NCBI GenBank assembly: GCA_026989455.1
Contig: JALSJH010000019.1
Span: 14,596-78,595 of the forward strand
Source of the DNA: Chromatiales bacterium
GTDB lineage: Bacteria > Pseudomonadota > Gammaproteobacteria > RBG-16-57-12
DNA length: 64,000 nucleotides
Direction: 5' to 3'
Shown: positions 2,713 to 56,286 of the stretch, one piece after another
Numbering within the stretch: position 1 is the first letter of the stretch
Layout: the number at the start of each line of letters is the position of its first letter
The notes under the pieces: generated by a model
What the model saw: the letters and a program-made list of their open reading frames with translations, nothing else
Databases searched by the model: none
What the model was told of the DNA's origin: nothing
Position numbers and translations under genes: made by a program

Positions 2713-4785
2713 TTACTCTTCAAAGTTGTAGTGCATCTCTCGATCAGGCTGTTGCAAGTAGTATCCCTGGACAAAGTTGACACCACTCTGCCAAAGAACC
2801 GCCAAGGTGTTGGCATCATGCACAAACTCCGCGATGGTTTGCATATTGTTGGTTTGTGCCATCTCTGAAATCTTTTTAGCAATCTCTTGTGCACCTTTGT
2901 CGTTGGCCAGTGTGCCTATTAATGATCCATCAATTTTAAGGAAATGAGCCTTAAGCCGGGTAAGGTAATCAATTGATTCCGGAAGCCCTAAAACATGCCC
3001 GATGGCGGTGAGGCAGTGGAGTTGATTGATCATGTTAATAAAGGCTTCAGACTCTTTTTTATGCCTCAGAACGTGTTCCTGGTCGAGTTCAAAGATTAAG
3101 TTGTCACCGGGGATGCGTGAATCCCGAAGGTATTTACTGATCCACTTGATGGTCTCTGGATCCAGTAGTGACTCTTCAGATAGTTTGATGAAAAGTTGTA
3201 ATTTTTTGCCTTGCTGACGTTGCTTGATGAGTGTGTTGATGCTGTTAACAATGACCCAACGATCAAACATCTTCATCAAACCAGGCTCTTGCGCGGCGGC
3301 TGGGAAAAAGTCACTGGGGGTGATCTCTTCATTTTCACTGTTCACCATGCGCAGTAGCACTTGGTAGCGCTCACCCGGTGTCGCATGCAGGCTGACGATG
3401 GGTTGAAAAACCAATCTGAAACCGTTCTCTTTAAGTGCGGTTTTAATCAGGTCCGTGTCGCAGCTGCTTTCAACTTCATCCGGTGTTGATGTGGCATCCT
3501 GTGGCATCTGTGCCCGGTTTCCTCCCGCTTGGTGTGCACTGTTGCAGGCACGTTCCAGTTCTACTAATACTTTTTCTGCGGAGTGCTCTCTATTTTTAAG
3601 TGGTGCACAACCAATGCTAACTGAGGTTATTATCTCTTGATCATCAATTAGAAAGTGAGCGCTGGCAATCGCGCTGCATATCTCTTGGGAGAGCTGGTTG
3701 ATTTCGCTTTCTGAAGATACTGGGTGATGGCAGGCAAACATCTCATCAGCAAAACGTGCCAAATTGCTGGCGTTTTTAAGTATTGGCTGAATGATGTCGG
3801 TGATATCTCGTAGAATCATGTCACAGCCAGCGATGCCGAGTTGCTGCTGTAGTTCGGGGTAGTTATCCAGCTTGATAAGAAGCACCGCGTGAGGAAACTC
3901 ATCCCATGCTGCTGGATCTGCCATGAATACTTTTAACTGCTCGATAAAGTGGCCACGGTTATTTAAGTTAGTGACAAGGTCTTTGTTGCTCAGCTCCAGC
4001 AGTTTCTGGTTAAGCTCTTCATCGTAACTCTGATCCTGTATCACTAGTTGGATGCTGGCTTCACCTTCTAGCAGTGCTTCAGTGAAGTCGATACTGACGT
4101 TAAACAGTTGTGTCCCTTTGATTGCAGCGCAGTTGAGTGTGGCGTGAGCCAGCTCTTGCCGACTAAATTGCCGCAAGATACTTTTTACCTCATCGCGGGA
4201 ATCTTTATCAATCAAGTCTAGCAGTGGTGTGCTGTCGAGTTTGTCCTGCTCTTCAAGGTCGAACATTTCAAGGTATGAGGTGTTGGTGTATGCATGCATT
4301 CCATCTTGAATGTAGGCGATGGCATCACGAGAGCTATCCATCAATATGCGATTCCGTTGCTGCTCCTCTTCTGTTTTTCGCTGAGCATGGTGCAGTTGAT
4401 TTTGCAGGGTGTGGGCACTGATCATTCTTGGGAGTAGAACCTCAAGAACTTTGATTTGATCATGTTCGATAATCTGGGTGGCACCCGCCATATAGAGCGC
4501 ATGGGTGGCATTGCAGCGCTCCTTTTGGCACAGGTAGACGGTAATGAGATTGGGCTGTTGTATGCTGATTTGTTGTTGCAGCGTCAGTGGTGGCAGGTCG
4601 ATTGCGGTGGTGTTGATTATGAATACATCCCAAACTTTTTCGGAAAATGCATCTTGTAGCGCATCGCTATCTTTTATTGATCTGTCTCTTACCGCAAATC
4701 CGGCATTTTTGAGGATATTGATGTATTGTTCACGCTGCTCCTGCTCATGTTCCCACATGAGAAGGTTAAGAATATTCTTTTTCAA
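2713..4785 (-). CDS. FimX-like c-di-GMP signalling protein: degenerate REC – PAS – degenerate GGDEF – degenerate EAL
   Basis: 690 aa. N-terminal receiver-like region without the phospho-accepting context, then a PAS-like segment. GGDEF position reads RFADEMF. The EAL domain is recognisable (ENGFRLVFQPIVSL, FDRWV, KIDGS, QGYY), but the EALLR motif reads QVLLR and the DDFGTG catalytic loop reads TAIGHV. This matches the architecture and length of Pseudomonas FimX (about 691 aa). Confidence 0.7.
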   Translation of the reverse strand: MKKNILNLLMWEHEQEQREQYINILKNAGFAVRDRSIKDSDALQDAFSEKVWDVFIINTTAIDLPPLTLQQQISIQQPNLITVYLCQKERCNATHALYMAGATQIIEHDQIKVLEVLLPRMISAHTLQNQLHHAQRKTEEEQQRNRILMDSSRDAIAYIQDGMHAYTNTSYLEMFDLEEQDKLDSTPLLDLIDKDSRDEVKSILRQFSRQELAHATLNCAAIKGTQLFNVSIDFTEALLEGEASIQLVIQDQSYDEELNQKLLELSNKDLVTNLNNRGHFIEQLKVFMADPAAWDEFPHAVLLIKLDNYPELQQQLGIAGCDMILRDITDIIQPILKNASNLARFADEMFACHHPVSSESEINQLSQEICSAIASAHFLIDDQEIITSVSIGCAPLKNREHSAEKVLVELERACNSAHQAGGNRAQMPQDATSTPDEVESSCDTDLIKTALKENGFRLVFQPIVSLHATPGERYQVLLRMVNSENEEITPSDFFPAAAQEPGLMKMFDRWVIVNSINTLIKQRQQGKKLQLFIKLSEESLLDPETIKWISKYLRDSRIPGDNLIFELDQEHVLRHKKESEAFINMINQLHCLTAIGHVLGLPESIDYLTRLKAHFLKIDGSLIGTLANDKGAQEIAKKISEMAQTNNMQTIAEFVHDANTLAVLWQSGVNFVQGYYLQQPDREMHYNFEE

Positions 4786-4854: not shown

Positions 4855-6600
4855 TTAAAGAAGCTCCCAAGCATTGTCCAAGCTGTCATCACTGCCCCGG
4901 GTATCGATAGCCTTCTTCGAAGCAATCTTGGCTATTTGCTCTATGCTCTCATATTGATACAGGGCGTGGCCACCTCCACGCTTGGTCTGCTGCTTGAGTA
5001 GTACCAGTGTATCTTCATCTCTGTGGTGCAAAGTTATCCGCTGGCCTTCTTTAAAGGTATTGGGGGTGACCAGGGTTGCGGGCTGTTTGATTGCGCTCAG
5101 TTCAGGAAGCAGTAGCGCCCGCATTTTGTGTTGTGCCTCGGGGTGTACCTCTTCAGCATATAAACTAATCTCAACCGGAGTGGCGCTGGGGGCAATGAGC
5201 TCAATGCCAATGACCAGTTCATTGCCCGTTGTTTGATGTACCCAGCGAATCAACGCCAATCCAAACTGCTTTCCTGATCCGTTAAAACCTTTATGTAAGC
5301 TAACCAATTCACCCACCTTGAGGCCATTGGCGGTTGTATTTTGTTTGAATTTTAGCTTGTAACCATTTGCGCTCTCATCAATAACATCGAAGTCATGGGT
5401 TTTATATTCAACCGGTTTGCTAGCGCGGTCTTCGCCGAAAACAGTTGTAGTCGTGGCTTCGCGGTATACATTCCAGACATCGGGTGCATCGTCACGCCCG
5501 ACGCTGGTGACGAATGAGTTCATGTAGCAGGCTGGGCGTGCAACATCATGGTTGCCGTGGCCAATATGGTGGCTGAGCATCCAGTGGATTGCACTGATAC
5601 CAATTGCCAAGGTAAACATATCTGATTTTTCTGAGCGGCTAAATACTCTCTTCTGCTCGCCTCCCAATTGTTTTTGTAGGCGCTGCAAGGTCTCTTTGTG
5701 CAGTGCGGTTAAGCTGGGGTTGCTGCGGCTCTTGGTTATTTCATCTTGCAGTGAAGAGCGCAGACTACTGGTGTCAATGATTCGCCAGCTTTCGCTCTGT
5801 TGTGTGGGCTTTTCAAGATATAACGGTCCATCATCACTGTTTAGGTTTATGAATAGGGCGTGTAGTCCCGGAGTATATTTCTCCATGCTGAGTAGGCGGC
5901 AGCTAGAGACCCAAGTTTCTAAAAGGTGGTTAAGTTGGGTTATCTCACGTTGCTCCAGACAAGCAGGTGTGGAGGCCGTGAGGAGCAGTGCCTGTTTGAA
6001 GCGATTAACAACGCTCCAAGGGGAGCGGCTGCCAAAAACAGCAATATCCGCAAGGGAGAGCTGTTCTGCATACTGCATGATCAGACACTGCTCACGCCAG
6101 AAGCTTTTAGGTATTGTGCTGTAGGTCAGGTACAGGCATAACAGGAGCCGGTTATTAAAGGCTAGGTGGCTTTGCATTACGGTCGCTAGTCGCAGGCGAC
6201 TTTTGCTTGACCCACCCTCGTTGAGGCTGTCAAGAATGATGGATTTATGGGCAATAACGACCTCATGTAGCAAGCTTTGTGCTAGACGTGCTATTTTTTT
6301 ATTTTTTGCGGGGAAGGGTAGCGATAGCCCAATGTAGTGTTTTTCCATCGCCTCAAGAATGTAGTCGATGGGGTCGTACAGCTGCTGGATTAACCGCTCT
6401 CTTTCGGTAGAGGGCAGTTTAAGGGCGTTTGATTCAGTGAGTAGCGCGTAGACCTGCTTCGCCATCAGGCCTAAATTAGCACGTGGCATATCCGCTAGCC
6501 ACTGCTCTATCGCTTTTGAGCGTAGGTCGCGACTACTTTTTGTCTGAGCTTGCTGCTCAGGTATTTTGAAACTGAAACTTTTCACCCTACATATTTCCAT
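4855..6600 (-). CDS. Hypothetical protein (581 aa), upstream partner of the FimX-like gene
   Basis: Long ORF with coding-like composition on the same strand, 69 bp upstream of the FimX-like gene. Soluble, no TM segments. The C-terminal about 120 aa is beta-rich with a weak PilZ-like pattern (GFNGSGKQFGLALIRW). No confident family assignment. Confidence 0.6.
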   Translation of the reverse strand: MEICRVKSFSFKIPEQQAQTKSSRDLRSKAIEQWLADMPRANLGLMAKQVYALLTESNALKLPSTERERLIQQLYDPIDYILEAMEKHYIGLSLPFPAKNKKIARLAQSLLHEVVIAHKSIILDSLNEGGSSKSRLRLATVMQSHLAFNNRLLLCLYLTYSTIPKSFWREQCLIMQYAEQLSLADIAVFGSRSPWSVVNRFKQALLLTASTPACLEQREITQLNHLLETWVSSCRLLSMEKYTPGLHALFINLNSDDGPLYLEKPTQQSESWRIIDTSSLRSSLQDEITKSRSNPSLTALHKETLQRLQKQLGGEQKRVFSRSEKSDMFTLAIGISAIHWMLSHHIGHGNHDVARPACYMNSFVTSVGRDDAPDVWNVYREATTTTVFGEDRASKPVEYKTHDFDVIDESANGYKLKFKQNTTANGLKVGELVSLHKGFNGSGKQFGLALIRWVHQTTGNELVIGIELIAPSATPVEISLYAEEVHPEAQHKMRALLLPELSAIKQPATLVTPNTFKEGQRITLHHRDEDTLVLLKQQTKRGGGHALYQYESIEQIAKIASKKAIDTRGSDDSLDNAWELL

Positions 6601-10477: not shown

Positions 10478-10888
10478 CTTAGGTATCTTGGTTGTTGAAT
10501 GCGTGGTAAGGGAAGCTCTAAATAAGTGATGATTATTACATGCCCGTATAGCCAGAGCCTATTTTTTTGTCATTTTGGGTTTAAATCTCCAAATAATTTA
10601 TGAATTAGGTACAATCGAGCTTGTTCCTTGATTTCATAAGGAATATTGAATCTGGATAATTCATGAATTATGCACAATATTACTTGTTTATTGCCTACAT
10701 GGACGCAGGTAAGAGGCGCTAGCAGGACGCGGTAGCTTTGACTCTGCAGAAAATATTTCCTCCATCGTCCGTAATCACGGATATGAAGCTCTTTCGGAAA
10801 TTCTCCTGTGAAGCCAATATCCTGCGTGTTTTTTGCACAAATTAATGAAATGTCGGGGTGGGTTGTTTCGTGGATGTACGGGTTTTTT

Positions 10889-11935
10889 ATGAAATACAAA
10901 AGTGAGATCTCCCCCCATAATCGCCAAGCGAGGGTGGGTGTGTTGTTGTTGAATTTGGGCACCCCGGATGCTCCGACTCCTTCGGCACTGCGCCGCTATC
11001 TGGCTGAGTTTTTGTGGGACCCTCGTGTTGTTGAAATGTCACGGCCGCTCTGGTGGCTGATTCTTCATGGCATTATATTGCGTACACGGCCCAAGCGGTC
11101 AGCAAAAGCTTACCAAACTATCTGGACTGAGCAGGGTGCACCACTGTTGGTGACTTCTCAGCAGCAGGTAGATGGCTTGCAGACGCGATTGCAACAGGAG
11201 GTTTCTCCTCATTTTGTTGTAGAGCTGGGGATGCGCTATGGTAATCCATCCATTGTCTCTGCTCTGGCGCGATTAAAAGAGGCGAATGTACAGCGCCTTG
11301 TGGTGTTGCCGCTCTACCCACAGTACTCGGCTGCGACGACAGCCTCTTGTTTTGATGTGATCTATCAGGAGTTACAGCGCTGGCGCTGGATTCCTGAGCT
11401 GCGTTTTATCAATGGCTATGCGGATCACCCGGCTTATATTTCGGCACTGGCCGATAGTGTTGAGAGCACCTGGCGGGCAGAGTCACGCAGTGACCTGCTA
11501 ATCTTCTCTTTCCACGGTACGCCGAAGCGCTATTTTGAAGCGGGTGATCCCTATTACTGTTTTTGTCAGAAAACGGCTCGCTTAGTTGCTGAGCGCTTGG
11601 GGTTGGAGGAGGGGGCTTATAAGGTGACCTTTCAATCCCGTTTTGGCAAAGAGCCGTGGTTGCAGCCTTATACGGATGAGGTGTTGGCCGCTCTGCCGTC
11701 TCAAGGGGTAAAGAGTGTAGCGGTTATCTGTCCGGGCTTTTCTGTTGATTGTCTGGAGACGATTGAAGAGATCGATGTGGAGAACCGTGAAATCTTTCTT
11801 ACCGCAGGTGGTGACTCATTTCAGTACATTCCAGCATTGAACGCTTCTTTCAATCATATAGATATGATGTTTCAGTTACTTCTTCAGCATACTGCGGGTT
11901 GGCCGTTATCGGAACAAGATAAATTGGCTGAGTGA
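10889..11935 (+). CDS. hemH: Ferrochelatase
   Basis: MKYKSEISPHNRQARVGVLLLNLGTPDAPTPSALRRYLAEFLWDPRVVE..., near-collinear with E. coli HemH. ATG at 10889 chosen; the track ORF extends upstream to 10808. Confidence 0.88.
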   Translation: MKYKSEISPHNRQARVGVLLLNLGTPDAPTPSALRRYLAEFLWDPRVVEMSRPLWWLILHGIILRTRPKRSAKAYQTIWTEQGAPLLVTSQQQVDGLQTRLQQEVSPHFVVELGMRYGNPSIVSALARLKEANVQRLVVLPLYPQYSAATTASCFDVIYQELQRWRWIPELRFINGYADHPAYISALADSVESTWRAESRSDLLIFSFHGTPKRYFEAGDPYYCFCQKTARLVAERLGLEEGAYKVTFQSRFGKEPWLQPYTDEVLAALPSQGVKSVAVICPGFSVDCLETIEEIDVENREIFLTAGGDSFQYIPALNASFNHIDMMFQLLLQHTAGWPLSEQDKLAE

Positions 11936-11961: not shown

Positions 11962-14361
11962 ATGGATACTACCGTGGATAAAACAGAGCTACCGTACCCC
12001 TCATTACTAATCGAAGATAGTGACATCGCCGTGGGGCCGAAAAGTGCCATTATTGTCACCCTCATCAGTGGTAAAAAACTAAAAGGCCGTCTGGTTGAGT
12101 TTCTACCCAACTCACCCACCATGGCGGTTGCTGGAAAAGGTGATGAAAAGCTGATTGTTCACCTAGGGTTGATCAAGACGCTAACCTTCCCAACCAAACG
12201 TAATAGAAAAACACGTCAACCTGCGCTTGATGAAACTCAGGGCATCGAAATGCCGCCCAGCAGCCAGCCCTTCAAGATTGTTTTTAATGATGGTAGTGAG
12301 GTGAAAGGGGAGACCTTGGGTTACCGCCCTGATCAGCACGGTTTGCACCTTTTCCCACTGGTTGATGAAAATCTTTTTATTCAAACATTCTATTCACACC
12401 GGGCGATAAAAAGTTACCAAGTGGGTGATTTCTTGGGTGAACTGCTGTTGAAGGATGGGCTGGTTACCGAGAGTGATTTGCAGCAGGCGGTCGAAACGCA
12501 ATCGAGTGATCGCAAACAGCAGCTGGGTGATTATCTGGTCGGTAGCGCCATCGTTTCAAGCGAAGATTTGCAAAAAGCACTCCTGCGTCAACGCTCTATG
12601 CCCAACATGCGCCTAGGCGAAATCTTAGTTAGCGAAGGGTTGGTAAGTGATGCGCAAATTGATGAGGCGCTGGACGCTCAGAAGGTAGATCGTGGTCGCC
12701 CGCTGGGGGAGATTCTGGTCAGTCAGGGGGTGGTTGAACAAATTGATATTCAGCGCAGCCTGGCTAAAAAACTGGGTATCCCCTTTGTTAATCTGGCTGA
12801 TTATCAAATACCCCCCGATGTGATTCAACGGCTGGATGAGGGGGTGGTGAGAGAGCTAGAGGTGATCCCCATCAGCATGTTTGAGGGGCGCTTGGTGATC
12901 GCCATGGAAAACCCGATGGATCGTGAGGCGATTGAGGTTATCCGCTTTAACTGTAACGTCACCGTTGAGGCGGTGATGGCGGATGTGGCAGGAATTAGAA
13001 AAGCGATCGATTTTTATTACTCGGCGGCGGCTGGGAGCGAATTTTCTGATCTTGAAATAGAGGATGATGGGCTGGATGATGACCTGCACAGCCAGGAGCT
13101 GGAGCAGAATTTATCGGATAACCTAGTGGTTAAAATGGTGAATAAAATTGTTATTGATGCCCATGCCCAAGGGGTTTCCGATATTCACATTGAGCCTTAT
13201 CCAGGTAAAAACAAAACCATTATCCGTTTTCGAAAAGATGGCTCTCTGTTGGAGTATGTACAACTCCCCTCCCAATATAAAAACGCCCTGGTTGCCCGTA
13301 TTAAAGTGATGGCGCTGCTGGATATTTCCGAAAAGCGCCACCCTCAGGATGGAAAAATTGATTTTAAAAAGTTTGGGCCATTAAAAATAGAGCTGCGGGT
13401 TGCCACCGTGCCAACAGCCGCTGGCCTAGAAGATGTGGTGATGCGTATTCTAGCGGCAGGGGACCCCATTCCGCTGGATAAACTGGGCGTTAGCGACCAC
13501 AACCTAGTGCGACTCAAATCATTAATCGCCAAACCCTACGGAATGATCTTCGTTTGTGGCCCGACTGGGTCGGGTAAAACGACGACGTTGCACTCTATTC
13601 TCGGCCACATCAATGTCCCTGAGCGTAAGATTTGGACGGCTGAAGATCCGGTCGAAATTACTCAGGCCGGACTCCGGCAGGTGCAGATCAACCCAAAAGG
13701 TGGCCTCACCTTTGCCGATGCGATGCGCGCATTTCTGCGGGCAGACCCCGATGTAATTATGGTGGGTGAGATGCGTGATAAAGAGACCACCGGCATGGGT
13801 ATCGAGGCTTCTTTGACCGGGCACTTGGTCTTTTCAACACTTCACACCAACAGTGCGACGGAGAGTATTGTGCGTCTGCTGGATATGGGGATGGATCCCT
13901 TTAACTTCTCCGATGCGCTACTGGGTGTTTTGGCACAGCGACTGGCTAAACGCCTCTGCTCGGAGTGCAAACAGGCCTATCACCCCGATGAATCTGAGTT
14001 GAACGGACTGCTGGATGAGTATTGTAGCGACCTACCCACTGAGGGTGATGAAGTACCGCAACCGAAAGTGCTGGCCGAATGGCAGGCGCAGTTTCTGGAT
14101 AAAGAGGGGAAATTCACCCTCTATAAAGCGATTGGCTGTGATCACTGCAACGATACAGGGTACGCCGGGCGCTTGGGGCTGCATGAGTTGCTGGTAAGTA
14201 GTGATGATATTAAACGGGCTATTATCAGTAAAATGCCGATTGTTGACTTGACCCGCTTAGCGATGACAGAGGGGTTGCGCACACTGCTGCAGGATGGCAT
14301 TGAAAAAGTGCTGCAAGGGACAACGGATATACACTGCATTCGTGCGGTGTGTAGCAAGTAG
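11962..14361 (+). CDS. Orphan GspE/PilB/MshE-family secretion ATPase with tandem MshEN c-di-GMP-binding motifs and an N-terminal tandem beta-repeat domain
   Basis: 799 aa. C-terminal secretion-ATPase core (Walker A VCGPTGSGKTTTL, DPDVIMVGEMRD, tetracysteine C-x2-C...C-x2-C). Residues about 157-270 hold four 24-aa motifs at 30-aa period, each matching RLGxxhhxxGhhxxxxhxxhLxxQ (FLGELLLKDGLVTESDLQQAVETQ / QLGDYLVGSAIVSSEDLQKALLRQ / RLGEILVSEGLVSDAQIDEALDAQ / PLGEILVSQGVVEQIDIQRSLAKK). Residues 1-150 are two similar about 65-aa repeats (…VTLISGKKLKGRLVEF… / …KIVFNDGSEVKGETLGY…). Confidence 0.85.
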   Translation: MDTTVDKTELPYPSLLIEDSDIAVGPKSAIIVTLISGKKLKGRLVEFLPNSPTMAVAGKGDEKLIVHLGLIKTLTFPTKRNRKTRQPALDETQGIEMPPSSQPFKIVFNDGSEVKGETLGYRPDQHGLHLFPLVDENLFIQTFYSHRAIKSYQVGDFLGELLLKDGLVTESDLQQAVETQSSDRKQQLGDYLVGSAIVSSEDLQKALLRQRSMPNMRLGEILVSEGLVSDAQIDEALDAQKVDRGRPLGEILVSQGVVEQIDIQRSLAKKLGIPFVNLADYQIPPDVIQRLDEGVVRELEVIPISMFEGRLVIAMENPMDREAIEVIRFNCNVTVEAVMADVAGIRKAIDFYYSAAAGSEFSDLEIEDDGLDDDLHSQELEQNLSDNLVVKMVNKIVIDAHAQGVSDIHIEPYPGKNKTIIRFRKDGSLLEYVQLPSQYKNALVARIKVMALLDISEKRHPQDGKIDFKKFGPLKIELRVATVPTAAGLEDVVMRILAAGDPIPLDKLGVSDHNLVRLKSLIAKPYGMIFVCGPTGSGKTTTLHSILGHINVPERKIWTAEDPVEITQAGLRQVQINPKGGLTFADAMRAFLRADPDVIMVGEMRDKETTGMGIEASLTGHLVFSTLHTNSATESIVRLLDMGMDPFNFSDALLGVLAQRLAKRLCSECKQAYHPDESELNGLLDEYCSDLPTEGDEVPQPKVLAEWQAQFLDKEGKFTLYKAIGCDHCNDTGYAGRLGLHELLVSSDDIKRAIISKMPIVDLTRLAMTEGLRTLLQDGIEKVLQGTTDIHCIRAVCSK

Positions 14362-14373
14362 TGGAATTTTAGT

Positions 14374-15033
14374 ATGATCAAGTGGCAGCAGGTTGATACT
14401 GTCATGCTGGATATGGATGGCACCTTGTTGGATCTCAACTTCGACAACACCTTTTGGCAGCAACAACTGCCAAAGTATTACGCAAAAAAACATCAGCTCA
14501 GTTTTGAAGCCGCGCGTCATGAGCTGATGACGCGCTATGCACAACATAAAGGCACGCTCCAGTGGTATTGCCTTGATTATTGGCGAAAAAACTTAGATAT
14601 TGATTTGATGATGCTGAAAAAGCAAACCACCCACCTTATTAAAGTGCTACCCCATGCTATTGAGTTTATCGATCGGCTGCGCCAAGCGGGTAAACGGGTT
14701 TTATTGGTGACCAATGCACACCCGGATAATTTGGTGCTAAAAATGGAGGTGACACAGCTCCACCATCACTTTGATGAGATTGTCTGTTCCCACGATTACG
14801 GGTATTGCAAAGAGGAGCAGCGTTTTTGGTCCTCTTTTAAGCAGCAACACGGATTTGATGCCGCTCGCTCGTTGATGGTGGATGATAATCTACAGGTACT
14901 AGCTAGTGCGCAGAAGTATGGCATTGCGCAACTCTTGGCGGTGCGCAAACCGGATAGCTCTCGACCAGAAAATAGTGTTGTTGAATACCCTTCCGTAAGT
15001 GATTTTTCTGAAATTATACCCACCATTGGTTAA
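14374..15033 (+). CDS. yrfG: HAD-family GMP/IMP nucleotidase (YrfG-like)
   Basis: 219 aa. WQQVDTVMLDMDGTLLDLNFDNTFWQQ, then LLVTNAHPDNLVLKME and FDEIVCSHDYGYCKEEQRFW; aligns along E. coli YrfG. Confidence 0.75.
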   Translation: MIKWQQVDTVMLDMDGTLLDLNFDNTFWQQQLPKYYAKKHQLSFEAARHELMTRYAQHKGTLQWYCLDYWRKNLDIDLMMLKKQTTHLIKVLPHAIEFIDRLRQAGKRVLLVTNAHPDNLVLKMEVTQLHHHFDEIVCSHDYGYCKEEQRFWSSFKQQHGFDAARSLMVDDNLQVLASAQKYGIAQLLAVRKPDSSRPENSVVEYPSVSDFSEIIPTIG

Positions 15034-17522: not shown

Positions 17523-17942
17523 ATGGTGTACCTGAAAAATAGTGGATTGGTTTTTCTATTTGTATTGCTCAGTGGCTGTTCTGGAATGACACCTGATCAG
17601 GTAGTGAGCGAGATCTATGGTGATTCGGGTGAAGATGGTCAACTCTATCAAAAGCTGTCTAAACTACAGTTTCAATTAGATGCTCTGACACAGCAAGCTC
17701 ACTGTAGCTCAGATTTTGAGTGCCAGACAATCGGTGTCGGTACCAAGCCTTGCGGGGGCGCTCGCTACTATTTTGCTTACTCGATTACATCTTCAGATGT
17801 GACCCAAATCACCAGTGTGGCGCGGGAGTATGATATTACAGACAATAAACTTGATCACCGGCTTGAGCGAGTTGATAAGTGTGCAATTGGCGTTGACCCA
17901 GGAGCCAGTTGTCGTAATTTGATCTGTACCTTGAACTATTAA
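17523..17942 (+). CDS. Cys-rich lipoprotein, unknown function
   Basis: 139 aa. Lipobox LLSGC|S. Six further Cys (CSSDFECQ, KPCGG, KCAIG, ASCRNLIC). Confidence 0.55.
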   Translation: MVYLKNSGLVFLFVLLSGCSGMTPDQVVSEIYGDSGEDGQLYQKLSKLQFQLDALTQQAHCSSDFECQTIGVGTKPCGGARYYFAYSITSSDVTQITSVAREYDITDNKLDHRLERVDKCAIGVDPGASCRNLICTLNY

Positions 17943-39809: not shown

Positions 39810-40361
39810 ATGATGGCACAAGACCCGAATAACCTGATTTGGATTGACCTGGAGATGACAGGGCTCGATCCCGATAATGATCGTATTATTGAAATTGCAA
39901 CAATCGTTACCGACACTGATTTGAAGCTGTTAGCTGAAGGTCCTGTGCTGGCGATTCATCAACCAGATGAGGTGTTGGCGCTGATGGATGAGTGGAACCA
40001 AACCACCCATGGTAACTCAGGTTTGATTGATAGAGTCAAAGCCAGTACCACTACAGAGCAAGATGCGGTTGCAGAGACCCTCTCTTTTTTACAGCGCTAC
40101 TCTTCCAAAGGGAGTTCGCCGATTTGCGGTAACTCAGTGGGCCAAGATCGTCGTTTCCTCTATCGCTGGATGCCTGAGCTTGAAGACTATTTTCACTACC
40201 GTAATCTGGATGTCAGCACCCTTAAGGAGCTGGCGCGTCGCTGGCACCCAAAAATGTACAGTGGTTTGAATAAACGGGGCACCCATAAAGCGTTGGATGA
40301 TATTCGCGAGTCGATTGAAGAGCTGGCCTACTATCGCCAACACTTTCTCAAGCTGCCTTGA
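39810..40361 (+). CDS. orn: Oligoribonuclease
   Basis: 183 aa. [23 protein letters not shown] ... [18 protein letters not shown]; nearly collinear with E. coli Orn. Confidence 0.92.
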
Positions 40362-40468: not shown

Positions 40469-41353
40469 CTATGCTGCCATATCCTTGACCATTGCCATGA
40501 ACTCGCTCTGTTGTGACTGAACCCGCTCAAGCACCTCTTTTGCCTTCTCTTTATCAATACCCAGCTCTGCCAGTAGCTTTTCGGTGGGGAGTTGGCTGCT
40601 GTTATCTTGCATGCCCGGCATCTTTAGTAGGCGATTGCTGAGGGCGACCAATTTTCCGTAGAGAGCATGCTCCCCATCATAGTCGGGGAAATGGTGCTCC
40701 GCCACCGCCTGAATGATCTCTTCAGGCATCTCCCAAGCACGCATTAGCTCCATGCCAACCATGTCATGAGATATACCAAATGAGTGCAGCTCGAGAGCGC
40801 GAATCTCCGTATCTGGATAGCGCTCTACCATCTTGTTGAGGTAAGCGTACTCTTCTGGATGCAGATGACCAAATAGCAGATAACCAAAGTTATGGAATAG
40901 ACCGCTGAGGTAACTGATGCCACCGTTTGGTCTGTCTTTGATACGACATTTTGCAGCTAACAGTTGACTCAATTCAGCGCAGGCTAACGCTTGTTGCCAT
41001 ATGATGGTGCGGCCAAGCGGTCCGTTATTAGTGCACAGCAGCGCTTTGCCCGATGCGAGCCCAAGGCAGAAGTGCAGCGCAACATTAAAGCCCATGACCA
41101 GCGCAATGGAATCACCGACACTCTTTATCCGATCTCCGTAACCATAGAATGACTGACGTCCGTAGCGCAATACCTGAGCGGTCAGGCTGGGGTCTTGCTC
41201 TATCACACTGACCAGCTCTTCTAGCTGTGCATTTTCGTTGTTGCGCAGCGCAAGCAGTTTACGAGCCGTTTCAGGCAGTGGCGGTAGCTGCTGGGTCTGT
41301 TGGAGTTGTTGACGGAATGAGGCGTTAAACTCCGCTTTATTGACGATTTCCAC
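40469..41353 (-). CDS. HDOD-domain signalling protein
   Basis: 294 aa. The HDOD core covers the N-terminal and central part of the protein (LPPLPETARKLLAL, DPSLTAQVLRYG, FGISHDMVG...). Confidence 0.7.
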   Translation of the reverse strand: MEIVNKAEFNASFRQQLQQTQQLPPLPETARKLLALRNNENAQLEELVSVIEQDPSLTAQVLRYGRQSFYGYGDRIKSVGDSIALVMGFNVALHFCLGLASGKALLCTNNGPLGRTIIWQQALACAELSQLLAAKCRIKDRPNGGISYLSGLFHNFGYLLFGHLHPEEYAYLNKMVERYPDTEIRALELHSFGISHDMVGMELMRAWEMPEEIIQAVAEHHFPDYDGEHALYGKLVALSNRLLKMPGMQDNSSQLPTEKLLAELGIDKEKAKEVLERVQSQQSEFMAMVKDMAA

Positions 41354-41641: not shown

Positions 41642-43891
41642 ATGAATCAGACTGTTCACTATGACGAAGGTGGTGTCGAACGCCAACCACTCAAAGCGTA
41701 CGCGGAAGCGGCTTACCTAAATTACGCGATGTACGTGATTATGGATCGAGCATTGCCAAATATTGGTGATGGTCTAAAGCCGGTACAGCGGCGTATTGTT
41801 TACGCCATGTCTGAGCTGGGTTTAAAAGCGGGTGCTAAATACAAAAAATCTGCGCGTACAGTGGGTGATGTGTTGGGTAAATTTCACCCCCATGGTGACT
41901 CCGCCTGTTATGAGGCGATGGTTATTATGGCGCAGCCCTTCACATACCGCTACCCACTGGTGGATGGGCAGGGCAACTGGGGTGCGCCAGATGATCCTAA
42001 ATCATTTGCGGCGATGCGTTATACCGAGTCACGGCTCTCCGCTTTTTCTGAACTGCTGTTAAGCGAAGTCAGTCTGGGAACAGTTGATTGGTTGCCGAAC
42101 TTTGATGGTACCTTGGAGGAGCCCGCTATTCTTCCGGCGCGGGTGCCCCATGTACTGTTAAATGGCACCACCGGTATCGCGGTGGGAATGGCGACCGATA
42201 TTCCGCCCCATAATCTTCGTGAAGTGGTCACCGCTTGTATCCAGCTGCTGGAAAAACCTAAAACCACGTTGGATGAGTTGTGTGAACATATTCAAGGGCC
42301 CGATTATCCAACTGAAGCTGAAATAATTACCCCACGGTCAGATCTGTTGAAGATGTATGCCACCGGGCATGGTAGCGTGCGGATGCGTGCCTGCTGGGAG
42401 AAGGAGCAGAGTGATCTGATTATCACCGCGCTACCCCATCAGGTTTCCGGCGCTAAGGTGTTAGAGCAGATTGCGGCACAGATGCAGGCTAAAAAGCTCC
42501 CGATTGTGGAGGATCTGCGCGATGAGTCAGATCACGAAAACCCCACTCGGTTAGTGATTGTACCGCGCTCAAATCGTGTTAATGCTGAACAGTTGATGGC
42601 GCACCTATTTGCCACCACCGATCTTGAACGGACCTATCGCGCCAATATGAATGTTATTGGTCTGGATGGTCGCCCCCAAGTTAAAAATTTACACACCATG
42701 CTGAGTGAATGGCTCAGCTTTCGGGTTGCAACGGTACGTCGCCGTTTGCAGTACCGCTTGGATAAGGTGAATTCACGTCTGCACATTCTTGATGCGCTGT
42801 TAATCGCGTTCCTAAATATAGACGAGGTTATTCATATTATTCGCACCGAAGATAAGCCAAAGCCGGTATTGATATCCCGTTTCAGTATCACGCCTGAGCA
42901 GGCGGAGGCCATTCTTGAGCTTAAACTTCGTCACTTGGCTAAGTTGGAGGAGATGAAAATCCGTGGTGAGCAGAGTGAGCTGGCAAAAGAGCGGGACTTT
43001 TTAGAGAAAATTTTGGGTTCAGAGCGTCGCTTGAAGACGTTGCTGCGTAAAGAGCTTGAGTCAGATGCTGAAAAATATGGTGATGATCGTCGCTCACCGA
43101 TTGTCGAGCGCAATGCAGCTAAAGCACTGGATGAAACCGCTCTGATCAGCTCCGAAGCGATCACCGTGGTGCTTTCGGAAAAAGGGTGGGTGCGCGCCGC
43201 GAAAGGGCATGAGGTGGAGCCTCCGTCACTAAATTACAAAGCAGGGGATGGCTTTCTGGCGGCGGCGAAAGGTAAAAGTAATCAGCCGGTGTTTTTTCTA
43301 GATGACCATGGGCGTAGCTATTCGCTTGCCGCCCACACTCTGCCCTCAGCGCGAGGGCAGGGAGAGCCGCTTACTGGGCGCTTGAATCCAGCTGAAGGCG
43401 CACGATTTAGCCATGTGTTGATGGGAAGAGATGAGCAGTTATGTCTGGTTGCATCAGATGCGGGATATGGTTTTGTCACTAAATTGAGCAACCTGCACAC
43501 CAAAAATAGAGCAGGCAAGGCGCTTATTACGCTGCCTGATGCTGCGCGGCCACTTTCACCGCTGTTGTTTGGATCACCTGATCTTCTGGTCGCGGCGATC
43601 ACTAATGAAGGGCGACTGCTGATCTTTCCTGTGGCTGAGCTGCCTGAGCTATCCAAGGGGAAGGGAGTTAGAATTATCAGTATTCCAGCAAATCGGGCGG
43701 CTGAGCGTGAAGAGCTATTGATAAACCTTCAGCTGCTCAAAAAAGGTGCCACGGTTGTTGTTTTCGCAGGTCAGCGTCACTGTAAACTGAGAGGGCGTGA
43801 TTTAGAGTATTACTTTGGTGAGCGCGGTCGCCGCGGCAGTAAGCTGCCGCGAGGCTTTCAGAAGGTAGATAGAGTCGAGGTTATAGAGTAG
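41642..43891 (+). CDS. parC: DNA topoisomerase IV subunit A
   Basis: 749 aa, the ParC size. [32 protein letters not shown], active-site AAMRYTE. Collinear with E. coli ParC to the C-terminus. Confidence 0.92.
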
Positions 43892-43895
43892 TTTT

Positions 43896-45641
43896 ATGGC
43901 ACTGGGTGTTGTTGATCGACTGTTAAGTGTTAATTTTTCGGGGCGTGATGCGTTACCGCCACGTAATCTTGCGCTGCAATTTAATCTGCCGGTTCAAATG
44001 AGTGACAAACGCTATCGCCCCGAGCAAAACCTGAATACGCTGCAAAAAGAGTTTCGCTCCCATGGGAATACCTCTTTTGTTCAATTGGAGCTGGCTATCG
44101 AACAGCTCTCGCTGCTAGTTCGTTACAAGTGTTCAATAAAAAAACGGTTGGCGACATTAGAGCTGGTGGGCGCCGAAACATCGGCATTGATTCGCCACAT
44201 CTATATGCAATACCGAGATGAATCGGGGGTTGTTGAGAGTAATGCACGCAAACATAACCTGGAACACCTCCTAGAGTTGCTGCGCTTGTTAAATATCGGA
44301 TTCCAACAAGTATTCAGTGCTCTTTATCAGCTGCCTGAGTATCGCTATCAAAGACAACGGAAATCTCTGCGGAGTGTCGGAATGCGAATACTCGAGCTTT
44401 TCTATGTTGAACAGCGGGTGTGCGCACTGCGTTATCAGCTCTTTCCACCCCAGCGGTGGCGAGGCCTGAATCAGGTGTTTTTTGTACTTTGGTTGTGCGG
44501 TGAGGTTGATGAGCCTCAGTCGTTGATGATTGATCTGCCATGCCACCTGCGTAGTGCGGGGCTGGTGAAAAGTAAGGTAATACAAACTAGGCCACGTCAA
44601 CTGTTTGTTTTATTGCAACTTTTTGGCTTGGCTGACTGTTACACCTGGCCCAGTGACTTTGTTCAGGTTTTAGATAGTTACATAAAGCTACTGGAGCCAG
44701 AGATAGCACTCAAGCCTGATGAAGATGGTGAGGTTCCAAGTAGCCACTTGCTGACTTTTTCAAATTCAGGGCGAGCCCCTTTTTATCATCGTGTGGCGTT
44801 TCAAGGGGTAGGTTGCCTGATTGATATATCCGCCTTAAAACAGCAAATAAGTCGTGATGCTGCTTGCCTTAATGCCTTGACAGAGAGCGAGGCTCTGCAG
44901 CAAGTATCCGCTCCGCTCTCGGTTCTGAATCAAACACAGCGGCTCACCTTTGTCGAGCTGTTGCAAAACAAACTGCAACCTCAGCAGCGTCAGGATAGCC
45001 GTGATTTGATTGATGATTACCGTGACTTCTCCATTGTTTCCGGTTTTATGAACTGCTACAAAAAGCTACCTAAGAGCTGCAAAAAACCGACCAAAAAGGG
45101 CACTGTATTTGAAATTACACTGGATGAGATGCTGGATGGTCGCTCATCCGCACTGGCTGATGATAGTCGCGATATAAAAGAGGGGCAGTGGTACGTCATT
45201 AATGACTGTAAAGGGGGCGTGCTGGTGCGCGCTAAAGAGTCACGCTACCTAGTCGCCCTGGATGTGGGGCAGCTTGCACTCTTTAGCCAAGTGGTCGACC
45301 CGGGCAGCCCACCACAACTGGGCTGCATCTCCCGCCTGTTGCGATCGGGGCAGGGGGAGATTGCGGTGACACTGCAAAAGCTGACATCACAAGCTGAAAA
45401 TGTGGTGTTGCAAACGGCCTCAATGCATCAGTCGGGGGAGGCAGTTCCCGCTTTTTTGGTGCGTGCAATAAAAGGGATGGGCTGGCAACTACTGGTTCCC
45501 TCTAAATATACTGAAGTATTGAGTGACAACCGACTGTTTATGCGTCGCAGTAAGCGGCTATTTTCAGTGGCGGTGATTCAGGTTGTACGACGGCATAAGG
45601 ATTACGCGCTTCTCGATATTCAATCAACCAGCAGCGATTGA
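43896..45641 (+). CDS. Hypothetical protein (581 aa) translationally coupled to parC
   Basis: Starts 4 nt after the parC stop. Soluble, Leu/Gln/Arg-rich, no motif I can name. C-terminal beta-rich region with a weak PilZ-like pattern (RAKESRYLVALDVGQLALF). Confidence 0.6.
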   Translation: MALGVVDRLLSVNFSGRDALPPRNLALQFNLPVQMSDKRYRPEQNLNTLQKEFRSHGNTSFVQLELAIEQLSLLVRYKCSIKKRLATLELVGAETSALIRHIYMQYRDESGVVESNARKHNLEHLLELLRLLNIGFQQVFSALYQLPEYRYQRQRKSLRSVGMRILELFYVEQRVCALRYQLFPPQRWRGLNQVFFVLWLCGEVDEPQSLMIDLPCHLRSAGLVKSKVIQTRPRQLFVLLQLFGLADCYTWPSDFVQVLDSYIKLLEPEIALKPDEDGEVPSSHLLTFSNSGRAPFYHRVAFQGVGCLIDISALKQQISRDAACLNALTESEALQQVSAPLSVLNQTQRLTFVELLQNKLQPQQRQDSRDLIDDYRDFSIVSGFMNCYKKLPKSCKKPTKKGTVFEITLDEMLDGRSSALADDSRDIKEGQWYVINDCKGGVLVRAKESRYLVALDVGQLALFSQVVDPGSPPQLGCISRLLRSGQGEIAVTLQKLTSQAENVVLQTASMHQSGEAVPAFLVRAIKGMGWQLLVPSKYTEVLSDNRLFMRRSKRLFSVAVIQVVRRHKDYALLDIQSTSSD

Positions 45642-48636: not shown

Positions 48637-50448
48637 TTAGGCACACAGCTCTCCGCAGTCAGTGCTGTCACCGCCGCCGCCACCGTTATCACCACCAGAG
48701 GATGGATTACTGACCCAAGCTGAAAGGTATTTGGTAGTCGTGCCATATTGATTGGTGAATCTAACGGTAATCAAATAGTAATCCTCGCCTACGATATTAA
48801 AGATCTCTTGAGTCAGATTGAGGGTGGTTGCTCCGGTGCCCGCAATATCAGAGCTTGCGGCAAGTTGTGTCTCGCCCCCTCCCATTGGCAGAGAGTATGA
48901 AATGGTGACGCTGTCGGCACCCTCCACATCCCAAGAGATAGTCGCACTCTGCGTGGTTGAGTCCATAGCCACGGAATAATTAAACTCATGGAGAATCGGT
49001 GTAGGCTCAGCATCGTAGGGCAGGTTAACGGTTTTTGTAACGCTATTGTTGTCTGAATCGGTTGCTGTGAGTGTAAAGGTGTACTGGTCGGCAGGGACTC
49101 CATTCAGCCCCATGGGGAATTGGGTTGACCCCGTGGCATTACCGAGCGTGGTGTTGTGTCCTTGATCTGAGGTGAGAGCCAATAACTCAGCGCTGACAGT
49201 TGACCAAGTGAAGATCGCATCGTTTCTATCAAACACCCAACGGGTATTGGATGGGTTTTGTGGGTCGAGTTCCAGTATGAAAAAGGGCTTTACCCGGCCG
49301 TTAAACGAATGAATGATGGGGGTTTCCGGGCCAGTAAACGCCAGTGTCAGAGCTCCCGCCACACCGTCACAGTTGTGGGTGGTGTTCGCCCGGTAAAGCC
49401 CATCAGGTGCAAAGGCGGTAGATTTAAGCTCTATATCAACCCCTCTAGGCATGGCGAGCGTTCTTCCACTATTAAGTAGGTTGGTAGATGCTGTGCGAGG
49501 GAAGCTGCTTGTTGTGCTGCCATGTAGCCTAGGAGTATCGGCATCGCTGGGTAGGCCGGAGGGTGTGACTGATAGAAAGCAGATCTGAGGGGCGATATCA
49601 TGGTTCCACCAGGAAAAGTGTGTAACCGTTGCCTGCAGAGCCATACCGGTGGGTGAGTCGACAGATGCGATGATGGTACCGACATTTTCTTGCAACCACT
49701 CTCCTGTGGCTTCATCCAGATACCATAGTGCGCCATCGTCACCGATCTGAACGGGAATGCCGTCGGGGTGGTTAGTGATGAAAACAGGTATTTCAATGGT
49801 GGCCGATTGGCCGCCAGCCAAGTTCAGCTCATTGCCATTTTGTGAAAAATAATACTCTACTGTGCCGTAGGACATGATGATCGGTGCGGCATCACCATTA
49901 ATATCAGTGCCGCTAAATGCACCGGGGAATACACCCAGTTCATTGTCATCGGAAACATCGACCGGTGTAATACTGAGCTGGACAGTGCCCGTCACTGGGT
50001 TGCCATTGGCATCGACCAAGGCACCTGCTGGCAAGCTAACTCGGGCACCGGAGATGCCGGTAATATCAATCGCTGCATCAGCGCTGAGAGTGATGGCGGC
50101 ACTTCTTTTGCCCAAGGTTGCGATAAAATCTGCTTGGTCATTGTTTGTTTCGAGCATAACGGTTTGTGCCGCGTAGCCGGGCTTTCTTAGGCGAACGCTA
50201 TCGGCCTTGTTTGCGGCGATGGAAAAACTGACTATGCCAGCGCTGTTGGAAGTGGCCAGCACACCATCATCGTTATAGATTTCGACACCCTCCAGAACCA
50301 GCTGGTCAGGGGTGCGTACCATGCCTGTTACGCTCACATTACTAGCCGCTGTATTGTCGGAGTCAGAATTGCTGCTGGAACAGCCGGCAATCATACTGAC
50401 TAAAAATAAAAGAGAGAGTAGCCAGGTCAGCTTGTTTCGTATATCCAT
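48637..50448 (-). CDS. Large secreted lipoprotein with Ig-like/beta-sandwich repeats and Gly-rich Cys-containing C-terminus
   Basis: 603 aa. Lipobox MIAGCSSS. Thr/Ser/Gly-rich beta modules. C-terminal SSGGDNGGGGGDSTDCGELCA. Confidence 0.55.
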   Translation of the reverse strand: MDIRNKLTWLLSLLFLVSMIAGCSSSNSDSDNTAASNVSVTGMVRTPDQLVLEGVEIYNDDGVLATSNSAGIVSFSIAANKADSVRLRKPGYAAQTVMLETNNDQADFIATLGKRSAAITLSADAAIDITGISGARVSLPAGALVDANGNPVTGTVQLSITPVDVSDDNELGVFPGAFSGTDINGDAAPIIMSYGTVEYYFSQNGNELNLAGGQSATIEIPVFITNHPDGIPVQIGDDGALWYLDEATGEWLQENVGTIIASVDSPTGMALQATVTHFSWWNHDIAPQICFLSVTPSGLPSDADTPRLHGSTTSSFPRTASTNLLNSGRTLAMPRGVDIELKSTAFAPDGLYRANTTHNCDGVAGALTLAFTGPETPIIHSFNGRVKPFFILELDPQNPSNTRWVFDRNDAIFTWSTVSAELLALTSDQGHNTTLGNATGSTQFPMGLNGVPADQYTFTLTATDSDNNSVTKTVNLPYDAEPTPILHEFNYSVAMDSTTQSATISWDVEGADSVTISYSLPMGGGETQLAASSDIAGTGATTLNLTQEIFNIVGEDYYLITVRFTNQYGTTTKYLSAWVSNPSSGGDNGGGGGDSTDCGELCA

Positions 50449-55224: not shown

Positions 55225-56286
55225 TCATTTTTTCTCTTTTTCGGTCAATCTTTTGAGGTTGCTTATCACCTGCTCGGTTCGTAGGATGTTGATTTGTGCT
55301 TGTTTGTTATCCGGGTCAAGTTTTAGTACTTGATTCCAACGGGTAATGGCATCAGCAAACTGATCCTGACGGTAATATTTTCTGCCCTGTTCCATGTGCT
55401 GTTCGACGGCCTGCTCGATCTCTTTGTGTAGCTGCTGTTTTAGTGGCTGGATCTTTTCACTGTTTCTGTTGATCGCTTCGGCCTGTTTTAGTAGCACAAT
55501 AGCTCGCTCCAGATCTCTTTTTTCCAAGGCGGCTGCTAGTTTTGAAGTTAACTCTCTGAGCCGTTGCCGTCTCTGCTGAGCTAGGCTCTGTTGCTTTAGC
55601 TCTATGCTCTCTTGATGCTGTTGAGTCAGTACCTTTTCCAGTGCTGCTTTGGCCTCTTTGCTCTCTGTTGTGGCGCTTAGCTGATAGGCTAGCGGCAGTG
55701 TCTGCTGGGCGAGAACTAGGTTCTCTTCTTGCAGTGCTTGCTTACCTGTTTTTAGTAACTTTTTGACCGTTAGTTGGGTTTTTTTACGGTATTCCAGAGA
55801 GCGTTTTTTGGCTTGTGAATTTTCAGGGTCGATGTGTAGCAGTTGTCGGTCAATGGTCATATTGGCATAGAGCGCTTCTGAGTTGGCGATGAGTCGCTCA
55901 GTCTCAAGACGCTGTTGCTCTTTTTTCTGAGTCGCTTGCCAGCGTACTTTTGCTTGTTTTAATACCGGGCTGTTGGGAATGCGGTGTTCCGCTTGTAATA
56001 GCAGCCGGTTAGCCTCTTCCCAGTGTTGGTCGGTGATCAGCTGTTCCAGTTTTTTTGGTAGGGCGGCCTCGTAGTTGGCGATCACTTTTTCGACCTGTTG
56101 GCGCTCATCCGGATTGTCGGCAGCTTGCAGGAGCGCTTGACTGTAATCACCACGGATAATGAGTTCAATGACATTCAGGTTGGAGGGTGGTGCCGGTTTT
56201 TTCTCTTTTATGGGAGCACAGGCGCTGAGGGTGCCCAGGATCAAGAGAAGCAGCGTATATTGAAAAAAAGTTTTATTTATCTGCAT
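55225..56286 (-). CDS. TPR/coiled-coil lipoprotein
   Basis: 353 aa. Lipobox LGTLSAC. Long helical Q/E/K-rich repeats. Terminal TPR-like YYRQDQFADAITRWNQVLKLDPDN. 14-nt overlap with the cyclase gene. Confidence 0.5.
   Translation of the reverse strand: MQINKTFFQYTLLLLILGTLSACAPIKEKKPAPPSNLNVIELIIRGDYSQALLQAADNPDERQQVEKVIANYEAALPKKLEQLITDQHWEEANRLLLQAEHRIPNSPVLKQAKVRWQATQKKEQQRLETERLIANSEALYANMTIDRQLLHIDPENSQAKKRSLEYRKKTQLTVKKLLKTGKQALQEENLVLAQQTLPLAYQLSATTESKEAKAALEKVLTQQHQESIELKQQSLAQQRRQRLRELTSKLAAALEKRDLERAIVLLKQAEAINRNSEKIQPLKQQLHKEIEQAVEQHMEQGRKYYRQDQFADAITRWNQVLKLDPDNKQAQINILRTEQVISNLKRLTEKEKK

Follow-up and report, generated by a model that had tools for sequence, protein, structure and literature searches.

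A long PilB/MshE-class ATPase with predicted tandem Sm-like barrels and a duplicated MshEN_N unit, encoded as an orphan gene in a Chromatiales bacterium

Results

An intact PilB/MshE-class ATPase

We analysed a 64,000-nucleotide stretch of DNA, referred to below as the window, from a Chromatiales bacterium (GTDB lineage Bacteria; Pseudomonadota; Gammaproteobacteria; RBG-16-57-12; GenBank assembly GCA_026989455.1, contig JALSJH010000019.1, positions 14,596 to 78,595 of the forward strand). At 11962..14361 (+) of the window lies a complete open reading frame (ORF) for a long PilB/MshE-type ATPase of 799 amino acids (aa); the parts of this gene are given below with their plus-strand coordinates. 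From the N-terminus onwards, the protein consists of DUF6982-like tandem barrels, an extra MshEN_N unit, a canonical MshEN domain, an N2 domain and the ATPase domain. Its start codon is backed by the colinear N-termini of full-length relatives. A preliminary description of this DNA, drawn from its letters and ORF translations, had identified the protein as a GspE/PilB/MshE ATPase with MshEN-type motifs for cyclic di-GMP (c-di-GMP), and had remarked that no pilin, platform, secretin or prepilin-peptidase gene accompanies it. None of these four kinds of gene was found in the 64-kb window.

The Pfam profile T2SSE (PF00437) matched the N2 and C-terminal ATPase domains (residues 385-790; 13114..14331) with 395 bits against a cutoff of 24.9 (E 3e-118). 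The Walker A sequence GPTGSGKT occupies residues 533-540 (13558..13581), and the other catalytic boxes are the Asp box EDPVE at 561, the Walker B box VIMVGEMRD at 598 and the His box TLHTN at 626. A tetracysteine site is formed by CSEC at 666 and CDHC at 726. Both the profile score and the complete set of catalytic boxes and zinc ligands place the protein in the GspE/PilB/MshE superfamily, in agreement with the preliminary description. The zinc module (C666-x2-C669 ... C726-x2-C729; 13957..14148) carries a family-specific insertion of ~30 residues. Spacing comparison gave 56 residues between the two CxxC pairs in the 799-aa protein and 55-63 in most of the family, compared to 30 in the canonical MshE-like ATPases encoded at three related loci (L018, L034 and L070). 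An extra cysteine, within an E[YF]CS motif, is shared by the 799-aa protein with the three long orthologues that were checked.

Among solved structures, the best match was PilF (444 bits), followed by PilB (410-415 bits) and GspE (~320 bits). The best NCBIfam model was that of PilB (TIGR02538, 534.8 bits, alignment from residue 218), and the GspE model (TIGR02533) aligned end to end with 466.3 bits. Four relatives had T2SSE scores of 383-404 bits, and full-length identity was at least 49% across the listed relatives. Judged from its motifs, the 799-aa protein is an intact and catalytically competent traffic ATPase of the PilB/MshE class, which would be expected to form a hexameric ring and to hydrolyse ATP.

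One complete MshEN domain and a duplicated helical unit

Upstream of the motor, four 24-residue motifs start at residues 157, 187, 217 and 247, which is the exact 30-residue period that had been described earlier. The NCBIfam model of the MshE-related c-di-GMP motif (NF053729) reported two stretches, the best being residues 217-269 with 90.9 bits against a cutoff of 38. This stretch corresponds to motif pair 2 (residues 217-270; RLGEILVSEGLVSDAQIDEALDAQ + PLGEILVSQGVVEQIDIQRSLAKK; 12610..12771), a canonical MshEN_N unit that is predicted from NF053729 and from conservation to bind c-di-GMP. It is followed by the MshEN_C alpha/beta subdomain, the single Pfam MshEN match of the protein (residues 271-357; 12772..13032). 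Pair 2 and MshEN_C together make up one complete MshEN domain, with the two-motif four-helix bundle and the alpha/beta subdomain by which the domain is defined (Wang et al. 2016).

Motif pair 1 (residues 157-210; FLGELLLKDGLVTESDLQQAVETQ + QLGDYLVGSAIVSSEDLQKALLRQ; 12430..12591) forms an extra MshEN_N-like four-helix unit, as indicated by the motif period, profile comparison and structure prediction. When the family profiles of pair 1 (residues 153-212) and pair 2 (residues 213-272) were compared using hhalign, they aligned in register over 53 columns (99.1%, E 1.5e-18), compared to 0.3% for an unrelated control. On this profile evidence, pair 1 is a genuine internal duplication of MshEN_N and not of the whole MshEN domain. 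The doubled MshEN module of the preliminary description is therefore right for the helical unit and wrong for the domain. Its own counter-check, that profiles might recognise only one MshEN unit, likewise came out divided, with one full domain and two helical units.

All four motifs had been read as fitting the MshEN consensus. Only motif 3 (RLGEILVSEGLVSDAQIDEALDAQ) fits it strictly. Motif 4 (PLGEILVSQGVVEQIDIQRSLAKK) begins with P and ends with K, and passes only the relaxed published pattern, [RKPN]hGxxhhxx[GAS]hhxxxxhxxxhxx[QNKRYWST] (Wang et al. 2016). Motifs 1 (FLG...) and 2 (QLG...A...) fail even the relaxed motif, in both cases at position 1. Across the family, the relaxed motif was passed by 1/100 members for motif 1 and 6/104 for motif 2, and the strict motif by none. 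Position 1 varies among members in motif 1 and is P in most of them in motif 2; with F and Q at these positions, pair 1 of the 799-aa protein has neither position-1 Arg. Other positions of pair 1 are largely kept, namely G3, L17, L21 and Q24. G3 was found in 100/118 (motif 1) and 99/118 (motif 2) members, all 118/118 had L17 of motif 2, and Q24 occurred in 99/118 and 111/118, with G3 and Q24 retained in both motifs in 94/118. In 18/118 members, motif 1 and half of motif 2 have been swapped for a Pro/Ala/Thr-rich linker while everything else is kept. Both prediction models gave pair 1 a short-long-short-long helix pattern, with a predicted local confidence score (pLDDT) of 66-78 that is lower than for pair 2. 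In pair 2, all 118 full-length relatives have G3, L6 and L21 in each motif, together with Q24 in motif 3 and K24 in motif 4; position 1 of motif 3 is R or K. A conserved Arg sits three residues upstream of motif 4. These features are consistent with c-di-GMP binding at the canonical site formed by pair 2 and MshEN_C. Sub-threshold Pfam matches over the motif region (DUF4388, FumaraseC_C and DUF2949) looked like helical-repeat noise and were discarded.

A proline peptide and two predicted Sm-like barrels at the N-terminus

The N-terminal block begins with a proline peptide, LPYPS (residues 10-14; 11989..12003), with the family consensus h-P-x-P-[PS]. P11 and P13 are invariant in the N-terminal alignment, and the motif occurs within the first 50 residues in 94/118 members. 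The neighbouring SH3/Sm-like barrels, or a partner protein, could dock onto this peptide.

Two beta-rich modules follow, module 1 at residues 29-81 (12046..12204) and module 2 at residues 102-154 (12265..12423). Both were predicted with a pLDDT of ~90, and they are related to each other by hhalign (88.6%, E 2.6e-6), as the preliminary description had noticed when it reported two related beta-rich repeats. Module 2 is the best-conserved part of the N-domain (F.I.F.DG..L.G.T.G.R.D..G.HLFP), and D110 and G127 are invariant. The preliminary description had seen an Sm/PilZ-barrel-like pattern here. The Sm half of this reading is upheld at the level of fold, since the predicted modules are five-stranded bent small barrels of the Sm/LSm/Hfq type. 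Membership of the Hfq/Sm sequence family was not found, as Pfam Hfq matched just 2/22 members (E 0.0045). The PilZ half was rejected, as a six-stranded barrel bearing RxxxR and (D/N)xSxxG is not what was found. Nor are the repeats a T2SSE N0-type domain, a possibility that had also been raised.

The preliminary description could not assign the repeats to a named family. Pfam gave no match on residues 1-156 of the 799-aa protein, and DUF6982 (PF22478) was absent even at E up to 10. However, 13/22 aligned family N-domains matched DUF6982 from position 3 to position 131 of the 134-position profile, with a best E of 1.7e-10. In relatives the match spans the whole 33-160 region, and three relatives score above the 24.5-bit cutoff. 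The 799-aa protein, itself below that threshold, is putatively linked to DUF6982 through its alignment to relatives (23-61% identity), in which the region does have a named family. The Pfam entry carries no function, and our literature search returned no paper mentioning DUF6982.

A profile search with the N-domain retrieved 658 cluster representatives (E up to 0.001), and in every case the block lay at the very N-terminus. Of the best 150 matches, about 125 were colinear with the 799-aa protein. Alternative outputs were rare: P0255 combines the barrels with MshEN and a receiver domain, and P0225 combines them with ankyrin repeats. Given these architectures, the N-terminal block appears to be an input module that can be transferred and that in occasional cases has a receiver domain or ankyrin repeats in place of the motor.

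An orphan family across gammaproteobacterial lineages

Relatives were collected by a genome scan with the alignment segment 100-285, and 80 loci of the 185 related species genomes were examined. The family is present in at least 185 species genomes across gammaproteobacterial lineages that include sulfur oxidisers, Candidatus Tenderia, Pseudohongiella and SAR86-type bacteria. Its gene contexts are diverse. In Pseudohongiella/SAR86-type loci, rpsD-rpoA-rplQ and then an aminotransferase and an EamA transporter gene lie upstream of the gene. Chromatiaceae/Tenderia loci have globin and ferredoxin reductase genes upstream and a polysaccharide deacetylase gene downstream, and the remaining loci have either glyA-nrdR-ribD or genes for RND efflux and cytochromes. 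No gene co-travels with the family across the examined loci, and its orphan status is family-wide.

The sole recurrent link to pili is an msh-like operon located 0.9-7.4 kb downstream in 14/22 Pseudohongiella/SAR86-type loci. It encodes an AAA_22/MshM-like protein, a secretin, a TPR protein and a 572-aa MshE-like ATPase. Where the spacing is closest, a single GST gene separates the long ATPase gene from the operon, which begins ~1 kb downstream in L018, L034 and L070. None of the other 40 loci has an msh-like operon; only L047 has a secretin-cluster gene, a single one located 4.1 kb downstream and unaccompanied by an MshM-like gene. At L018, L034 and L070, identity to the 799-aa protein is 47-48% for the long orthologue and 35-37% for the nearby 572-aa MshE-like ATPase. 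Since the msh-like operon retains its own MshE-like ATPase, the long ATPase at these loci is an additional paralogue and not a displaced mshE. This contradicts, for the Pseudohongiella-type relatives, a displacement for which the preliminary description had allowed.

Neighbouring genes and c-di-GMP-related genes in the window

Directly upstream of the ATPase gene, on the same strand, lies the ferrochelatase gene hemH (10808..11935 (+)), identified by TIGR00109 and separated from it by 26 nucleotides (nt); AGGG is located ~10 nt 5' of the ATG. The start of hemH is ambiguous, as the longest ORF, from the GTG at 10808, encodes 375 aa and public gene calls give 331 or 348 aa. After a gap of 12 nt follows a YrfG-type GMP/IMP nucleotidase gene (14374..15033 (+); NF011564, 240 bits against a cutoff of 189). 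Next on the same strand are genes for an AmgK-like kinase and MurU, which overlap by 4 nt, and a UvrY/GacA-type regulator comes after this run. MurU scored 321 bits against a cutoff of 250. AmgK was the top match of the kinase, yet at 314 bits it is below the equivalog cutoff of 550, so the preliminary assignment of the neighbours as hemH and yrfG-amgK-murU holds firmly for all but the kinase. Promoter and terminator scans around the ATPase gene did no better than on shuffled sequence and are therefore uninformative on operon structure. The hemH/yrfG-amgK-murU setting was found in 3/80 loci, those of the three closest relatives (L005-L007). The synteny being limited to these, it reflects lineage history and no functional link.

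Elsewhere in the window are two genes for 581-aa FimW-family paralogues, one at 4855..6600 (-), with FimW_N and FimW_C in the precomputed Pfam annotation, and one at 43896..45641 (+), directly after parC (41642..43891), with FimW_N. Our separate Pfam and NCBIfam searches gave no match for either 581-aa protein. In P. aeruginosa, FimW reportedly binds c-di-GMP and promotes the assembly of type IV pili, and the two FimW-family genes suggest that the host organism has type IV pili. The window also contains a GGDEF-EAL protein gene (2713..4785 (-)), an RNase_T-family gene resembling oligoribonuclease, Orn (39810..40361 (+)), an HDOD protein gene (40469..41353 (-)) and a gene for an SMP_2-containing class III nucleotide cyclase (56273..57784 (-)). 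The set of two FimW, GGDEF-EAL, Orn and HDOD genes points to the use of c-di-GMP and pilus-type signalling by the host. Two further ORFs have no Pfam family on record. One encodes 603 aa (48637..50448 (-)); the other (17523..17942 (+)) encodes 139 aa, with an N-terminal hydrophobic stretch that ends in Cys (VLLSGCSG) and gives it a lipoprotein-like look.

Discussion

We lean towards the view that the 799-aa protein is a c-di-GMP-gated motor paralogue of the PilB/MshE class that acts in trans on a pilus machine and carries an added N-terminal input or adaptor module. As far as sequence comparison goes, its family is a set of paralogues separate from the ordinary PilB, MshE or GspE of the cell. 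Residues 217-799 would work as in MshE/PilB, an ATP-hydrolysing ring driving the inner-membrane platform of a type IV pilus-class machine. Because the family is never found with platform, pilin or secretin genes of its own, it would have to act in trans, and the machine served, perhaps a type IVa or MSHA-type pilus, would be encoded elsewhere. The long ATPase would probably compete or alternate with the resident ATPase, its activity or recruitment being gated by c-di-GMP at the canonical MshEN site. The proline peptide, the two Sm-like barrels and the duplicated MshEN_N would form the added input or adaptor, most likely for protein docking or autoinhibition, and the extra helical pair may represent a second nucleotide site that is weaker or vestigial.

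Several observations weigh against this view. The equivalog cutoffs were missed for both PilB (534.8 vs 675.65) and GspE (466.3 vs 630.25). Where the consensus has Arg and Gln, motif 4 has Pro1 (106/118) and Lys24 (118/118), and in a reconstruction of the GSPII-A domain of PilF the loss of the motif-II Arg abolished measurable c-di-GMP binding, which leaves the affinity of even the canonical pair-2 site unproven. Proteins of the P0170 type (769 aa) match T2SSE less well and are without a canonical Walker A, which hints that some of the family could be regulators instead of motors. Finally, platform, pilin and secretin genes are unlinked in the window and in most relatives, so that the partner machine is a guess, and the msh association, confined to one lineage, may be inherited synteny.

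The preliminary description had proposed two complete c-di-GMP sites. With one c-di-GMP bound by each helical pair, the motor could respond in a graded or cooperative manner, as in Thermus PilF. We regard a second site in pair 1 as possible, though doubtful and not indicated by its sequence. Pair 1 is an in-register duplicate of pair 2 with the same predicted helix pattern, and the residues it largely keeps are those making most of the contacts in MshE. In MshE, moreover, leucines weigh more than Arg9 for affinity: mutation of Arg9 shifted it at most five-fold, and leucine changes cost more than ten-fold. PilF holds two c-di-GMP per monomer, and an isolated MshEN_N without MshEN_C can bind the ligand (Wang et al. 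2016). The same PilF, however, contains in GSPII-A a near-consensus MshEN that is a non-binder, and pair 1 departs from the consensus, with F and Q at position 1 and a relaxed motif that hardly any member passes. Its lower pLDDT and its replacement mostly by linker in some members also count against a second site, and the claim of two complete sites is not borne out. Rather less probable is a role in signalling or regulation instead of as a pilus motor, with the ATPase sensing c-di-GMP and an input at the barrels and relaying them, for example, to exopolysaccharide production or to another machine. The gene is never encoded together with a machine, the N-terminal block is also fused to non-motor outputs (receiver domain, ankyrin) and degenerate Walker A variants exist. 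In addition, PilB of M. xanthus is reported as a signalling intermediary for exopolysaccharide production (PMC5544727). Nevertheless, the 799-aa protein retains every catalytic and zinc-module residue, and the T2SSE scores together with the identity among relatives fit selection on a working motor. Separate encoding is also compatible with a motor role, as illustrated by the PilT/PilU-type ATPases, which are motors encoded apart from their machine.

It would be very unlikely, in our estimate, that the protein is a GspE-type ATPase for a type II secretion system encoded elsewhere. TIGR02533 aligns end to end and some relatives are named GspE/PulE in databases, but the scores are lower than those of PilB-type models and structures, no GspL-type partner gene lies nearby, and the N-terminus is a c-di-GMP-type MshEN whose conserved binding residues are lost in the N1 domains of XpsE/GspE (Wang et al. 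2016). We give next to no credence to a local role with ferrochelatase, the GMP/IMP nucleotidase and AmgK-MurU, such as envelope remodelling or disposal of GMP after c-di-GMP turnover. The genes are tightly spaced on one strand, no terminator-like site was seen in the two junctions, and GMP, in which c-di-GMP breakdown ends, is a substrate of the neighbouring nucleotidase. Yet the arrangement is confined to the closest relatives, other members sit in unrelated housekeeping contexts, and the promoter and terminator scans were at shuffled-sequence level. The link to heme and peptidoglycan recycling, to which the preliminary description had attached meaning, was therefore rejected for want of conserved synteny.

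A bolder form of the trans-acting motor paralogue seems improbable. Here, the N-terminal block would be an autonomous input module that makes the protein a third motor for a shared type IV/MSHA platform, integrating two signals, displacing the resident PilB/MshE and switching pilus behaviour. The two signals might be two c-di-GMP sites of differing affinity, or c-di-GMP and a protein or RNA ligand on the barrels. We know of no motor-swapping input module of this kind. The cytoplasmic ATPases that power type IV pilus-class machines are interchangeable, and how cells select among them is a live question in research on surface sensing and biofilm entry. The family places two uncharacterised input elements on an otherwise standard c-di-GMP-gated motor. 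Once worked out, its partner and ligands would show if bacteria reprogram one pilus with extra, differently wired motors, and DUF6982 would gain a function.

The preliminary description had considered the arrangement undescribed, which is too broad. Architectures with (MshEN_N)2, and MshEN_N fused to many domains, are on record (Wang et al. 2016), and Thermus PilF has two c-di-GMP bound per monomer. As MshEN, tandem MshEN_N and the multi-site PilF are already published, current understanding is not overturned. Our literature searches returned nothing on a PilB bearing an N-terminal extension, an Sm-like domain or MshEN, and a search for orphan MshEN ATPases yielded no characterised member of the present family. 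As far as the searched literature shows, what is undescribed is the consistently orphan combination of tandem Sm-like barrels/DUF6982, MshEN_N, a full MshEN and the motor.

The closest known systems include the PilB-PilZ-FimX complex of Xanthomonas citri (PDB 7LKM/7LKO), MshE of Vibrio cholerae and PilF of Thermus thermophilus. MshE, the extension ATPase of the MSHA pilus (MshEN in PDB 5HTL), is without the 216 extra N-terminal residues found here. Compared to MshE, the 799-aa protein is encoded outside an msh operon, its motif II is Pro-first and Lys-last, and its zinc module is longer by ~30 residues. PilF (PDB 6F8L, 8PDK and 9G1W), the best solved-structure match, is also a traffic ATPase with multiplied N-terminal c-di-GMP modules. 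Of its three GSPII domains, one is non-binding despite good motifs. The third GSPII domain aligns with the 799-aa protein from motif 2 of pair 1 onward, so that in PilF, too, the canonical pair is preceded by an additional motif copy. In contrast, PilF triplicates the whole GSPII module (N and C), whereas the 799-aa protein doubles the helical N unit only and has a single MshEN_C. PilF also has no Sm-like barrels, and it is the main pilus and DNA-uptake ATPase of its cell rather than an extra paralogue.

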